In this document: piece after piece, positions 5,971 to 13,462 of the stretch
Position numbering within the stretch: position 1 is the stretch's first letter
Layout of the letters: every line of letters begins with the position of its first letter
NCBI RefSeq assembly: GCF_057098645.1
Contig: NZ_JBXSPU010000002.1
DNA: 64,000 bases
Strand: one strand, 5' to 3'
Source of the DNA: a plasmid
Program-made: the position numbers and the translations under genes
The notes under the pieces: model-generated
What the model saw: only the letters and a program-made list of their open reading frames with translations
What the model was told of the DNA's origin: nothing
Database searches by the model: none

Positions 5971-5989
5971 TTTTGATCTCCTTTTTTCA

Positions 5990-6445
5990 TTATTCTTCTA
6001 AGTAATTTGTTAAAGCTTCCAAGAACAGCTGGGCTTTAGCCAATGTTTCATCATCCATCGTTGCCAAAAAATTTAAATAATTTGCTTTAGCTTGCTCATG
6101 CAACACATGATGAATATCCGCAATATGCTCACCTTCTTTCGTTAACTGATAAAAAATCGACTTTTGATTATCTTCCACTTGGTATGTCGTGATTAATTCA
6201 TCCTTCAATAACTTATTCACAGCCTTTGAAACTGCTGCTTTTGTTAACGCTAAAGCATCACTGAGCACTTTATTATTCACAGCATCATGTTGCTGAATAC
6301 AGCTCAAAATATGCAATTGCGTTAATGTGTAATTGCCCAAATCCTTCAATAAAATTTCACGCTTTTTCTCTCGATGAATTTCTTGTGCATGTATTAACTT
6401 TACTAAAGTTCGATACATTTTTTCTGTTTGTGTTGTCATAATCAT
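5990..6445 (-). CDS. zitR: MarR-family transcriptional regulator (zitR-like)
   Basis: 151-aa ORF with winged-helix MarR-like core; low-GC; position matches the zitR of published tet(X4) contexts. Confidence 0.7.
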   Translation of the reverse strand: MIMTTQTEKMYRTLVKLIHAQEIHREKKREILLKDLGNYTLTQLHILSCIQQHDAVNNKVLSDALALTKAAVSKAVNKLLKDELITTYQVEDNQKSIFYQLTKEGEHIADIHHVLHEQAKANYLNFLATMDDETLAKAQLFLEALTNYLEE

Positions 6446-6667
6446 TATCTCAGCTTTGTTTACCAGTTAACTATATTCCTGATTTAAATTATTGTCAACT
6501 GGTTAACTATAAATTTGAGTTAGTTTTATAAATACTTATAATGTTCCAATGATCAATAATCCTTTACTCAAAAAACCGAGAATCGCTCGCGGTTGATGCA
6601 CTTGGAATGTAGTGCATCGAATCGATAAAACATTCCATGTATTTGCCATTTTATTTGGAGCTTTGTC

Positions 6668-7297
6668 ATGGAAAAAAAACATTGGTCAAAAGTGGAATAT
6701 CTCCACGAAACTGTTAAAAACTCAAACATTATCATTAAAGGTCAACATAGCTATTACAGCGATTGTTGGGATCAGGGCTTTGAAGCTTCTGTTGTGCGCT
6801 ATTTATATGGCGATGAAGAAAGCTTAAAGTGGGAACCTTTATGGCACATCGATCAATTATACATTGGTGATTATGTCTGCATTGGCGCAGAAGCGGTAAT
6901 TCTCATGGGCGGCAATCATACACATCGCGCAGATTGGTTCAGCTTATATCCTTTTATGGAAACTATCATCGATGCTTATCAAAGCAAAGGTGATACGCAT
7001 ATTCATGATAGCGCTTGGATCGGTATGCGAGCGATGATTATGCCAGGCATCACAATTGGAGAAGGCGCAATCGTTGCCGCTGGCAGTATTGTGACAAAAG
7101 ATGTGGAACCTTATGCAATTGTAGGTGGATCACCTGCACAATTAGTAAAATACAGATTTCCACCAGAGATCATTCAACAGTTATTAGCATTGCATATTTA
7201 TGATTGGGCACCTGAGAAGTTTCAGGCGCTTCGCCCATTCTTAACACAAAATAATATCGAAGCATTGATTGAAGCTGAGAAACATTATTCGCTGTAA
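6668..7297 (+). CDS. cat: hexapeptide-repeat xenobiotic acetyltransferase (CatB/Vat-like)
   Basis: 209-aa ORF with left-handed beta-helix hexapeptide motifs (IGDYVCIGAEAVIL..., WIGMRAMIMPGITIGEGAIVAAGSIVTKDVEPYAIVGGSPA) typical of CatB/Vat acetyltransferases. Confidence 0.75.
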   Translation: MEKKHWSKVEYLHETVKNSNIIIKGQHSYYSDCWDQGFEASVVRYLYGDEESLKWEPLWHIDQLYIGDYVCIGAEAVILMGGNHTHRADWFSLYPFMETIIDAYQSKGDTHIHDSAWIGMRAMIMPGITIGEGAIVAAGSIVTKDVEPYAIVGGSPAQLVKYRFPPEIIQQLLALHIYDWAPEKFQALRPFLTQNNIEALIEAEKHYSL

Positions 7298-7344
7298 TCG
7301 TGATTTTCCTTAATGTATCTATCCCTTCCTTTAGAAGGGATCGT

Positions 7345-10813: not shown

Positions 10814-11151
10814 GTTCCGCGTCCTTGCAATACTGTGTTTACATACAGTCTATCGCTTAGCGGAAAGTTCTTTTACCCTCAGCCGAAATGCCTGCCGTTG
10901 CTAGACATTGCCAGCCAGTGCCCGTCACTCCCACTCAATAGTTGGCACAAAGTCCTATTCTAGGCACTACCATTACTTTACAACGCCTGAAGAAAAGAGG
11001 ATATGTTTCCTTAACTGAATTACATTTACAACTTAACCCATCTCTTTGCGAACCGCCGAGTACGTGACCCGTACGCTCGGTGGTGTGAGAGGCGCACTCC
11101 GTCAGTTACTGGCGGAGCCGTCTACTCGATTATGTGCCGTTTTATTCCATT

Positions 11152-12309
11152 TTATACATTTAACAATTGCTGAAACGTAAAGTCGGGTTTAAACATTTCA
11201 ATTTCGTTTTGAGTTGATTCTTCTTGTGCTTCTTTGCCATAGATAAACATTTGCTGTTCATAATTTTCAATAGCCTCTTCAATGCTGTTAAATTTCCCAT
11301 TGGTCAGATTATCCGACAATATCAAGGCATCCATCAACCCGCTGTTTACGCCTTGTCCTGCAAAAGGAGGCATCAAATGAGCAGCATCTCCAATCATCGT
11401 TATGGGTAATGGACGCTTACTTTTCCAAGACTTACCTAAGGGAAATATTCGTGTCGCTAACCCTACAAAAGATGATGTCACACGAATCAGTTCTTTGTAG
11501 CGTTCGTCCCAATCGGAAAATTCTTTCAGAAGAAAATCAACGACACTATTTCTGTTTTGAAAATCTACCTGCGTTTGGTTTTTCCATTCATCAGGTGTTT
11601 TAAAACTTATTCCAAAATGCAATGCACCATTATTATTAGGATTCGCAAATAATAAATTACCTTGATGAGCAGCCATTAGCCGGTTTCCATTGCATAGCTG
11701 AAAAAATCCAGGACAGTTCACCTCTGGATGATGAATATCGGCTTGTATATTGAAAGTACCTGTTTCTTCAACTTCCGTGTCGGTAACAAATTTTCTTACT
11801 TTAGACATTCCACCATTGGCAATAATAACCAGATCTGCTGTTTCACTCGGTTTATTCTCAAAAGTTAGTGTCCACTTCTTCTTACCAGGTTCAAGCATAA
11901 CAAGTTTTCTATCCCAAATAACCGTGTCGTTTTCTAAACTATTCAACAAGATAGCCCTTAAGTCATTTCTGTTTATTTCAGGATTGTCAAATCGATTTTC
12001 GGGCTTTACATTTTTTGTGGATAAAATATTGCCTTTTTCATCAGCAATATTTACACCCATTGGTAAGGCTAAGTCATAATAAGTTTGTAACAATCCCGCT
12101 TTTTTCATTGCTTCCTGACCTGAACCTTTGTGTAGGTCAAGGGTTCCACCAAAAATTCTTGCCTCTCGGTCGTTGTCTCTTTCGTAAACTGAAACGTCTA
12201 TGCCGTTTTGCTGTAATAATTTTGCCATAGTCAGTCCAACGGGTCCACCACCAATTATTGCAACGTTCTTATCACTAAGTAAATTCATTTGTTTTTCTTT
12301 ATTGCTCAT
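11152..12309 (-). CDS. tet(X4): Tet(X)-family FAD-dependent tetracycline monooxygenase, Tet(X4)-like (385 aa)
   Basis: 385-aa [35 protein letters not shown]... with FAD-binding GGGPVG motif; abh-tet(X)-ISCR2 context is that described for tet(X4); exact allele cannot be verified without a database. Confidence 0.85.
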
Positions 12310-13216
12310 TTATATGTTTTTCAATTCCGTCAATTATTGTTGTCCAATCTTCAAAGTGCAATTCGTGTCCTGTTCCTTCAAGAGTAATTAATTTCGTATT
12401 TTGTATTTTCTCAATTAATACACCAGCGTTTTTATAGTGCCAAATTTTGTCATCTGTTCCGTGAATTATCAAGGTTGGTTGATTTACTTCATTTAGTCTA
12501 TTCCAATATTCTTCACTACCTTGCAATGTAGCGTGATTGAACATACTTATATAATTGTTTGCTCTATTGAACTCAGCTCTTATCAGCTTTTCACTTCTTT
12601 GTTTATCAAATTGTTTCTTGCCGCACATTAATTCTGCACCCTGAATTAAATAGTTTACCACACTGTCTTCATTTGACCAATCGACTGTGCCTGCTTTACC
12701 ATGGAAATCTAAAATACGTGTGTCCATCTCAGGAATAGTTGGGTCCGAGTCTCCCCAAGGGCCTGTAGACATAAGTGTTAATGAGCTAACTCTATCGGCA
12801 AACTTTATAGCTGCTATTTGTGTAATTAGCCCACCTAATGACATACCCACAAAATGTGCTTTGTCTATTTCATAGCCGTCCAAAATTGCAATGGCATCAT
12901 TTGTTAAGTCAACAATGTCGTATGGTGCTGAACCCGGCTCATAATTAGTGGATTTTCCTACATCTCTGTTGTCGTAACGAATAACAAAAAATCCTTTTTC
13001 AGATAATTGTTGGCAAAATTCAGTGTCCCAATACAGCATTGATACGGTTGCACCTGCTACCAAAAGGATTGCTGGATTTTTCTTATTTCCAAAACTTTCC
13101 GTACAGAGTTCAATGCCGTTTGTTTTAATTATTTTCTCTTTCATTTCTGTTTTCCTTTGTTTGCAACTGATTATTATCAGTCCTAAAATTAATATCCAAA
13201 GTAGTTTTTTTTTCAT
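12299..13216 (-). CDS. estT: alpha/beta-hydrolase esterase (abh/EstT-like)
   Basis: 305-aa ORF with signal peptide/lipobox-like N-terminus and nucleophile elbow GMSLGG; overlaps the tet(X4) start by 11 bp. Confidence 0.75.
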
Positions 13217-13462
13217 TTATCAATGTTTAACTGTTATGCTGGTATCTTTCACAATGCCCGCTAACTTATATATATACGAAACATTCTACTCTATTTCATA
13301 CCCATATGGCAAGATAGGCGAATGTTTTTACTATTTTATTTCGCATTTTGAATTTCTCAAATATAAAAATTATTTTAACATTTTAGTACTTATAGTGCTT
13401 AATTATTGGTGATGCTGCCAACTTACTGATTTAGTGTATGATGGTGTTTTTGAGGTGCTCCA

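Follow-up and report, generated by a model that had tools for sequence, protein, structure and literature searches.

Which organisms supplied the AT-rich genes that lie between the ISCR2 copies of tet(X4) plasmids, and how did this insertion sequence come to carry them? We addressed this question for a 64,000-nucleotide stretch of a plasmid contig (NZ_JBXSPU010000002.1, assembly GCF_057098645.1), hereafter called the window, in which two blocks of low guanine-plus-cytosine (GC) content alternate with GC-rich sequence. Block A (positions 5971-9083) carries the genes annotated yheS, cat and zitR, and block B (10932-13406) carries tet(X4) and a gene annotated abh, predicted below to be estT. We propose that each low-GC block is foreign DNA that keeps the composition of its donor, the GC-rich spacers being ISCR2 copies and an older floR unit. 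For block A the source would be the core chromosome of a Wohlfahrtiimonas lineage, close to W. populi, that is not yet sampled, and for block B most likely a member of the Bacteroidota, order Flavobacteriales. The mosaic would consist of ISCR2 cargo units arrayed along a tet(X4) plasmid of the IncHI1/FIA type. We give this explanation as a whole a probability of about 0.8.

Transferable high-level tigecycline resistance in Enterobacterales is carried mainly by this region, whose structure has often been described. Positions 5500-14200, upstream IS1 included, are 100% identical to p2019XSD11-190, pYPE10-190k-tetX4 and dozens of other plasmids, which are tet(X4) plasmids of about 190 kb of the IncHI1B/FIA type from pork, pigs, pets and people. 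The gene order is that of the published context G4 of Li et al. (PMC7190383), also called Group III (PMC8627205), and there is no sequence difference between the G4 context and the window. It has been argued that the GC content of about 37% of tet(X) variants points to a source in the Flavobacteriaceae (PMC7722449), and phylogeny has been used to argue for the same origin (PMC7494873). The mosaic region itself and the low-GC argument for tet(X) are thus already published. The accounts of G4 that we consulted give the gene names and say nothing of where yheS-cat-zitR came from, of the precise junctions, of the probable intron remnant or of abh being EstT. In the literature searched, no paper joined Wohlfahrtiimonas with ISCR2, and none of those listed joined it with ISVsa3 or floR; the Wohlfahrtiimonas origin of block A and its repeated capture appear to be unreported, if modest, additions.

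Composition and boundaries of the mosaic

Read along the minus strand, the region consists of IS1, estT, tet(X4), a complete ISCR2, an ABC-F gene (yheS), an acetyltransferase gene on the opposite strand (cat), a MarR-family regulator gene (zitR) and a truncated ISCR2, followed by a virD2 fragment, floR, a lysR fragment and an ISCR2 5' fragment. GC content is 0.601 in the lysR-floR-virD2 segment (1940-4375), 0.601 in the truncated ISCR2 (4376-5970), 0.375 in block A (5971-9083), 0.595 in the complete ISCR2 (9084-10931), 0.364 in block B (10932-13406), 0.536 in IS1 (13407-14175) and 0.454 in the remainder of the window (14176-64000). The sliding-window profile has the same shape, with values of 0.57-0.67 between 1400 and 5900, 0.32-0.41 between 6000 and 9200, 0.58-0.64 between 9200 and 10800, 0.30-0.40 between 11200 and 13400, and about 0.53-0.57 in IS1. 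At the level of genes, GC is 0.33-0.40 for zitR, cat and yheS and 0.35-0.37 for tet(X4) and estT, against 0.61 for both ISCR2 copies, 0.65 for the virD2 fragment and 0.59 for floR. The difference is sharper at third codon positions, with 0.32 for zitR, 0.35 for cat, 0.33 for yheS, 0.31 for tet(X4) and 0.28 for estT, against 0.71-0.72 for ISCR2, 0.77 for the virD2 fragment and 0.68 for floR.

Maximum-likelihood change points in GC were placed at 5915, 9102, 11128 and 13451 (log-likelihood gains of 37-71 nats). Homology independently defines the junctions at 5970, 9083, 10931 and 13406, and three of the four change points lie at most 20-55 bp from them. The remaining one falls at 11128 and not at 10931 because ISCR2 and tet(X4) are separated by 199 bp of GC-rich sequence, probably the remnant of a group II intron. 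The mosaic that the earlier note had read from the letters alone is therefore confirmed by both the sliding window and the change points, with blocks of 0.36-0.38 GC between segments of about 0.60; neither GC nor codon usage is uniform, GC and third-position GC alternating between blocks and spacers. The two ends it gave to the region were also accurate, since 5971 is the junction of the truncated ISCR2 with block A and 13407 is the first base of IS1.

The same note had pointed to AT-rich, promoter-like sequence upstream of the blocks, for example at 13217-13407. The region upstream of estT (13217-13406, minus strand) has indeed a GC content of 0.26 and two sigma-70-like matches, at 13360-13333 and 13312-13283. 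However, although their placement is sensible, such matches occur about as often as chance would give (19 between 5900 and 13500, against 17.4 +/- 4.8 in shuffled sequence), and we dropped promoter-like sites as evidence.

A probable Wohlfahrtiimonas donor for block A

Block A comprises 3113 bp on the minus strand. When the ABC-F protein was scanned against one genome per species, matches came from Wohlfahrtiimonas populi (96% amino-acid identity) and W. larvae (90%); beyond the Wohlfahrtiimonas group the next relatives share 53%. In a search of about 5.8 billion proteins, all organism-named relatives of at least 90% identity outside ISCR contexts belonged to Wohlfahrtiimonas. The regulator is likewise 97.3% identical in amino acids to the W. 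populi MarR protein. At the DNA level, positions 5969-9083 align with the W. populi chromosome (a 199-kb scaffold, locus 7876-11022) at 92.5% over 3147 bp, and this homology stops at both ISCR2 junctions. In W. populi the locus is flanked by genes for putrescine aminotransferase, aminobutyraldehyde dehydrogenase, PdxY, PhnX and PhnW. The same gene order recurs on a second Wohlfahrtiimonas-like contig of chromosomal origin, where the block shares 89% identity with the window, and where block and flanks together, across 12.6 kb, share 88% with W. populi. The shared synteny and this identity over both block and flanks argue that the locus was inherited vertically within Wohlfahrtiimonas. This genus of Gammaproteobacteria (Ignatzschineriaceae) is fly- and plant-associated, and linked to flies, larvae and animal wounds.

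One of the two ends of the block shows the direction of transfer. There the plasmid copy stops 21 bp past the stop codon of the regulator, inside the next gene, which in W. populi is an intact 136-amino-acid open reading frame (ORF) overlapping that stop codon (TAATG). A gene that is cut in the plasmid and intact in the chromosome fixes the direction of movement, from chromosome to ISCR2. On the other side the block meets a precise oriIS end, and the promoter-like site TTGACT-16-TAAAAT (9076-9049) that precedes the ABC-F gene lies 5 bp downstream of it. Relative synonymous codon usage (RSCU) in block A correlates at r=0.876 with that of the W. populi flanking housekeeping genes and at r=0.59 with that of Empedobacter plasmid genes.

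One could also suppose that Wohlfahrtiimonas was the recipient, yheS-cat-zitR having moved from ISCR2 plasmids into its chromosomes. The genes sul2, strA and aph(6)-Id often travel with ISCR2. Some W. chitiniclastica strains carry these genes (PMC9301364), so that contact of the genus with ISCR2 is plausible. Neither W. populi nor the second Wohlfahrtiimonas-like contig has any ISCR2 at the locus, however. The block lies among conserved, syntenic housekeeping genes in no fewer than two chromosomal lineages (88% over 12.6 kb), its GC and codon usage match the host chromosome, and the gene at its end is cut only in the plasmid. We therefore rejected a transfer in this direction as very improbable. 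Another candidate set aside was Aeromonas simiae, whose 'cat' gene is 98.6% identical and looked like a closer donor; it proved to lie in the plasmid context already described, with frameshifts from the assembly. Another, distinct ABC-F gene, on plasmids of E. coli, Proteus terrae, Shewanella and Klebsiella, shows about 74% identity to 8437-8971.

A core chromosomal donor near W. populi thus remains our explanation for block A, whose progenitor is identified to the genus only.

A probable Bacteroidota donor for block B

Block B (2475 bp, minus strand) is of Bacteroidota type. It abuts the intact terIS end of the complete ISCR2 on one side and is cut short by IS1 on the other. The circular record NZ_CP080061 (4607 bp) has a longer block of 2760 bp, the additional 285 bp ending within a signal-peptide ORF at an ISCR2 oriIS end. 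By this comparison, the IS1 at 13407 appears to have removed the last 285 bp of the block together with an upstream ISCR2 copy.

The gene at 11152-12309 (minus strand) scores 865.6 with the Tet(X) profile NF033111 (cut-off 750), and the identical plasmid is annotated Tet(X4) at 100%. Upstream of it, 'abh' (12299-13216, minus strand) is a predicted macrolide hydrolase of the EstT family (NF041759, 527.3 against a cut-off of 450). The profile covers residues 26-303 of the 305-amino-acid ORF and other assemblies call a 281-amino-acid product, for which the internal ATG at 13144 is the more likely start. Between tet(X4) and ISCR2, on the strand opposite to tet(X4), lies a probable 3' remnant (domains V-VI) of a group II intron, 199 bp long (10932-11130, plus strand) and cut by the terIS end. 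The Rfam model RF00029 matches 11051-11130 over its full length with 35.3 bits, below its gathering score of 40 (E=3.6e-4). In blastn searches the remnant matched introns annotated with ltrA, the best being on a plasmid of Adhaeribacter, a member of the Bacteroidota (81% over 86 bp). It was found in every tet(X4) plasmid matched.

Relatives of Tet(X4) with organism names on large contigs were all from Bacteroidota, including Riemerella anatipestifer (86-91%, on contigs of 2-3 Mb), Capnocytophaga, Elizabethkingia, Chryseobacterium, Myroides and Pedobacter. The closest EstT is a protein of Empedobacter falsenii (93%), other named relatives being from Pontibacter, Echinicola and Sphingobacterium, and tet(X) DNA is 95.4% identical to an E. 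falsenii plasmid. RSCU in block B correlates at r=0.872 with Empedobacter plasmid genes and at r=0.61 with the W. populi flanking genes. The estT-tet(X) pair is conserved elsewhere too, with 95% identity in Acinetobacter indicus and 87% where the tet gene is tet(X6). In A. indicus plasmid pBDT201-3 (NZ_CP094261.1, locus 3887-8480) an estT-tet(X5-like) pair lies between two ISAba1 copies. A related pair has thus been mobilised by a different insertion sequence, and its conservation with ISAba1 and with tet(X6) indicates that the linkage of estT to tet(X) is older than its association with ISCR2.

Altogether, these relationships make a donor in the Bacteroidota, order Flavobacteriales, most likely. 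The earlier note had named the Flavobacteriaceae as the donors of tet(X). Relatives in the Flavobacteriales and codon usage agree with this in a broad sense; the family itself is too narrow, Empedobacter, one of the closest sources, belonging to the Weeksellaceae of that order (NCBI taxonomy).

Given two neighbouring AT-rich blocks, one would also wonder whether both were taken in a single capture from one low-GC donor of the Flavobacteriaceae and later split by ISCR2. Their similar GC (0.375 and 0.364) and the presence in both of candidate drug-modifying or drug-protection genes would fit. However, 92.5% identity ties block A to a Wohlfahrtiimonas chromosome, and close relatives of its proteins are lacking in Bacteroidota. 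Codon usage of the two blocks correlates at only r=0.52, each reaching r=0.87-0.88 with a different reference, and among PLSDB records 209 contain block B and 83 contain block A, block B being mostly found without block A. Homology, codon usage and distribution thus contradict a single donor, an explanation we regard as extremely improbable and have discarded. Separate captures from low-GC donors, as the earlier note had supposed, are on the contrary upheld: homology and codon usage give two donors in different phyla, with the chromosome of W. populi nearest to block A and Bacteroidota nearest to block B.

Probable repeated capture of the Wohlfahrtiimonas locus

Two further mobilised versions of the locus were found. 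The first is in Vibrio cholerae (GCA_050860295.1, contig ABZGMN010000054.1) and in an identical Logan contig, SRR33891912. There the ABC-F gene starts 452 bp downstream of the ISCR2 oriIS end and is separated from the acetyltransferase gene by an IS4-like element. The far junction, 8 bp before the start of the acetyltransferase gene, leads into the interior of ISCR2, at the equivalent of position 9498. A 327-bp fragment of a prepilin-type (N_methyl) gene lies upstream and has no match upstream of W. populi yheS.

The second version is in the chromosomes of Providencia alcalifaciens and two other bacteria, one of them probably Proteus terrae (AP025014.1, CP047639.1 and CP084296.1; locus coordinates about 4700-13600). 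Here 22 bp separate a canonical ISCR2 from the start of the ABC-F gene (540 amino acids) downstream of it. After this gene come the acetyltransferase, the MarR regulator, a SnoaL-like gene, 146 bp of pdxY, aph (an APH-family kinase) and grpB. The segment ends at the intact terIS of a divergent ISCR, which encodes a 499-amino-acid transposase and is 83-88% identical to ISCR2. This version adjoins tet(X4) or tet(X6) units.

The ABC-F gene of the window is 94.6% identical to that of W. populi, 92.0% to the Providencia version and 91.7% to the Vibrio version. For the acetyltransferase, the Providencia version is 96.8% identical to W. populi, and the window 96.6% identical to the Vibrio version. 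The three mobilised versions thus do not group together, the other two being 8-10% divergent. Since their junctions differ and their identities are interleaved, the comparison points to repeated capture, with at least two and probably three independent events.

Proposed assembly of the array and possible capture mechanisms

Comparison of the window with itself revealed three pieces of ISCR2, all on the minus strand. The complete copy (ISVsa3, 1848 bp, 9084-10931), whose limits come from the three-copy comparison, carries the transposase gene at 9320-10813. The truncated copy (1595 bp, 4376-5970) is 99.9% identical to 9084-10678 and has lost 253 bp at its 5' end, that is terIS, the transposase promoter with a LexA-box-like site, and the start of the gene. 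The third piece (310 bp, 1630-1939) is a 5' (terIS) end beside the lysR fragment and floR; it is 99.7% identical to 10622-10931 and shares with the complete copy the end sequence GGAGTGACGGGCACTGGCTGG. Positions of oriIS and terIS were taken from bioRxiv 10.1101/2025.11.21.689736. The oriIS end of the complete copy reads GGGCGTTTATTCTTCCTATACGTG on the minus strand, and the junction between the truncated ISCR2 and block A reads ...GATCAAAACA followed by GGGAAAGGAATTGCC, with a 2-bp CA microhomology.

We propose that the 1595-bp truncated ISCR2 and the 3113-bp block A formed a circle of 4708 bp. Through homologous recombination in ISCR2 sequence, this circle would have been inserted into the complete copy present in the shorter published arrangement estT-tet(X4)-ISCR2-virD2-floR. 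IS1 would later have removed the far end of block B. Recombination of such a circle into a complete ISCR2 reproduces exactly the observed order of complete ISCR2, block A and truncated ISCR2. The two ISCR2 copies of the window are spaced by exactly 4708 bp. One assembly carries yheS-cat-zitR twice, 4708 bp apart, so the unit can be duplicated in tandem, and tandem repeats of a larger region containing it have been reported (PMC8627205). A 14.4-kb record, NZ_CP139181, was considered as a circular multimer of the unit and turned out to be an ordinary small IncFIA resistance plasmid with part of block A.

The first pick-up of each block by ISCR2 is what we infer from these structures, and two routes fit. 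In one of them, which we place a little short of even odds, an ISCR inserted downstream of the locus, and a rolling circle running from oriIS through terIS into donor DNA would have stopped at variable points upstream of yheS. The strand would then have closed on oriIS as a circle able to recombine into other ISCR2 copies. The direction in which read-through past terIS carries adjacent DNA is here taken as general background. All five cargo segments (block A, block B, the floR unit, and the Vibrio and Providencia versions) have a precise oriIS end on one side. The oriIS lies at -125, -452 and -22 from the yheS ATG in the three versions, as variable termination would give, and an intact terIS is present on the other side of block B, the floR unit and the Providencia version. 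A circular ISCR2-estT-tet(X4) molecule of 4607 bp has also been deposited (NZ_CP080061), but circles can come from recombination between direct ISCR2 repeats as well. Moreover, block A and the Vibrio version are joined to ISCR2 internally, at the equivalents of 10678 and 9498, which calls for extra deletions, and the far-end oriIS of the Providencia version belongs to the canonical ISCR2 and not to the downstream ISCR.

Alternatively, and with perhaps one chance in three, ISCR2 inserted upstream of yheS with oriIS facing the gene, an insertion possibly selected for outward transcription driving the locus. Illegitimate recombination would then have excised a circle of partial ISCR2 plus block, which recombined into a complete ISCR2 elsewhere. 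This route explains why a precise oriIS is combined with an internally truncated ISCR2 at junctions with 0-2 bp of microhomology, in block A as in the Vibrio version, and it predicts the 4708-bp unit and the order complete ISCR2, block, truncated ISCR2. The Providencia version keeps 22 bp before yheS, with a ribosome-binding site and no promoter, so that expression must come from ISCR2. In ISCR1, promoters reading outward from the oriIS end have been documented (PMC6218425); such a promoter in ISCR2 is putative. On the other hand, three independent insertions in the same orientation within about 430 bp would be needed in three lineages, and the blocks with an intact terIS are left unexplained. 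No IS91-type target tetranucleotide (GTTC/CTTG) was consistently present beside oriIS at the five junctions.

Several points weigh against our explanation of two donors and ISCR2 cargo units. The best chromosomal match to block A reaches only 92.5%, the true donor species not being among the sampled genomes, and the assignment to the genus rests on three to four related genomes. A native chromosomal context of the estT-tet(X4) pair was not found. EstT relatives of 93%, 87% and 82% amino-acid identity lie on a small Rep3 plasmid contig, beside an integrase or in unrelated neighbourhoods, none of them beside tet(X). A search of JGI metagenome contigs for an exact 27-mer taken from the donor DNA beside terIS gave no match, and published tet(X) environments of Flavobacteriaceae do not align with the ISVsa3-abh-tet(X4) context (PMC7494873). 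With regard to mechanism, rolling-circle transposition is presumed and not demonstrated for ISCR elements (bioRxiv 10.1101/2025.11.21.689736); the structural signs at ISCR2 cargo are precise oriIS junctions and variable far ends. Simple read-through of terIS needs an additional deletion for the truncated ISCR2 beside block A, which has no terIS. Finally, the Providencia version, with an upstream ISCR2 canonical to oriIS and a downstream ISCR 83-88% identical to it, does not fit a simple circle followed by recombination.

Possible function and significance of the captured genes

The names yheS, cat and zitR are labels of automatic annotation, and none of the three products reaches a curated family cut-off. 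The regulator (5990-6445, minus strand), with a promoter-like site TTGACA-17-TATAGT at 6498-6470, scores 55.6 with the AdcR/ZitR profile NF038251 (cut-off 175); it is, judging from this score, a generic MarR-family protein outside the ZitR/AdcR family. Divergent from it, the acetyltransferase (6668-7297, plus strand) is a CatB-related hexapeptide enzyme of the xenobiotic type. It scores 165.4 with the CatB profile NF000490 (cut-off 350), below CatB membership, and 122 with the Vat profile NF000311 (cut-off 300). Its closest solved structure is CatB8 (142 bits), and its RefSeq name is 'CatB-related O-acetyltransferase'. The ABC-F ATPase (537 amino acids, 7345-8958, minus strand) has as best family the ribosomal-protection-like NF000355, ahead of the EttA, Uup, PRK10636 and PRK15064 models, with 339.8 for a resistance-type cut-off of 380. 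It falls far under the cut-offs of the Msr, Vga, Sal, Lsa and OptrA profiles, scores 178 against 917 with PRK10636, the model for E. coli YheS, and is equally similar to the solved YheS, Uup, ExpZ and VmlR (171-188 bits). On these profile scores the name yheS is a mislabel.

Repeated pick-up with different junctions is the usual signature of genes under selection and marks the ABC-F/acetyltransferase pair for phenotype testing, although the capture pattern could provide only circumstantial evidence of selection. A further, rather unlikely hypothesis would be that block A is an unrecognised resistance module native to Wohlfahrtiimonas, mobilised by ISCR at least three times from different lineages because it was selected on farms. 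The selecting agents would then likely be phenicols or pleuromutilin, lincosamide and streptogramin A drugs, and a fly-associated genus would be a previously unnoticed progenitor of plasmid-borne resistance genes. Whatever its function, this AT-rich passenger is present in about 40% of the PLSDB plasmids with the tet(X4) block (83 of 209 records) and can be traced to a Wohlfahrtiimonas chromosome. Given the flies, larvae and animal wounds with which that genus is linked, this indicates a concrete habitat in which ISCR2, Flavobacteriales and Enterobacterales could meet. As for block B, identification of 'abh' as EstT makes the tet(X4) unit a predicted two-drug unit, and veterinary macrolides may therefore co-select it.

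Other features of the window

The identical plasmid annotates the ISCR2 transposase as WP_001120888.1, an IS91-like ISVsa3 transposase. The Pfam domains Zn_Tnp_IS91 and Y2_Tnp are present, and the score with the generic NCBIfam ISCR clade Ia model is 670.8, below its cut-off of 925. Upstream of the transposase gene of the complete copy, a LexA-box-like CTGT-N8-ACAG site, CTGTATGTAAACACAG, lies at 10833-10848 (minus strand) and matches the LexA box described for ISCR2 (bioRxiv 10.1101/2025.11.21.689736). The copy at 4376-5970 has lost this site, the promoter and the start codon.

In the floR unit, floR itself (2266-3480, minus strand, GC 0.59) scores 896.8 with NF000219 (cut-off 700). The 'virD2'/DUF3363 ORF (3697-4581, minus strand) is a relaxase C-terminal fragment, matching only positions 435-651 of the 654 of the RlxS profile (220 bits against a cut-off of 850). 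It is a fusion: its first 206 bp (4376-4581) belong to the part of ISCR2 that lies downstream of the transposase gene, and what follows is an RlxS-type C-terminal third. The IS1 at 13407-14175 (plus strand, family NF033558) forms a 769-nucleotide inverted repeat with two other IS1 copies. These copies, at 18204-18973 and 20618-21386, are both inverted relative to it and flank repE (about 19296-20051, minus strand), where direct repeats at 55-bp spacing (19107-19296) look like replication iterons.

Comparison with known systems

In ISCR2 cargo units such as ISCR2-virD2-floR and the 4.6-kb ISCR2-abh-tet(X4) circle, the cargo runs from a precise oriIS end to a terIS end and the ISCR2 copies are direct repeats; tandem amplification and circles are known for such cargo units (PMC8627205). 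Unlike this standard cargo, the ISCR2 of the block A unit has lost 253 bp including terIS, and the unit on its own is not a standard product of terIS read-through.

With regard to gene content, a parallel can be drawn with the vat-vga type pairs of staphylococcal plasmids, which combine a streptogramin A acetyltransferase with an ABC-F ribosome-protection protein. Block A likewise places a hexapeptide xenobiotic acetyltransferase beside an ABC-F protein whose best profile is ribosomal-protection-like. It differs in that its proteins fall under the Vat, CatB and resistance ABC-F cut-offs and that its source is a conserved chromosomal locus in a Gram-negative genus.

With regard to origin, blaCTX-M from Kluyvera and qnrB from Citrobacter are examples of chromosomal progenitors of mobilised resistance genes to which block A could be compared. 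Here too, a core chromosomal locus is found next to an insertion sequence on the plasmids of other genera, with several independent captures out of different lineages, and the mobilised block keeps the composition of its donor. In contrast with these systems, the best chromosomal match of block A is 92.5% and not at least 99%, and its contribution to resistance is only putative.

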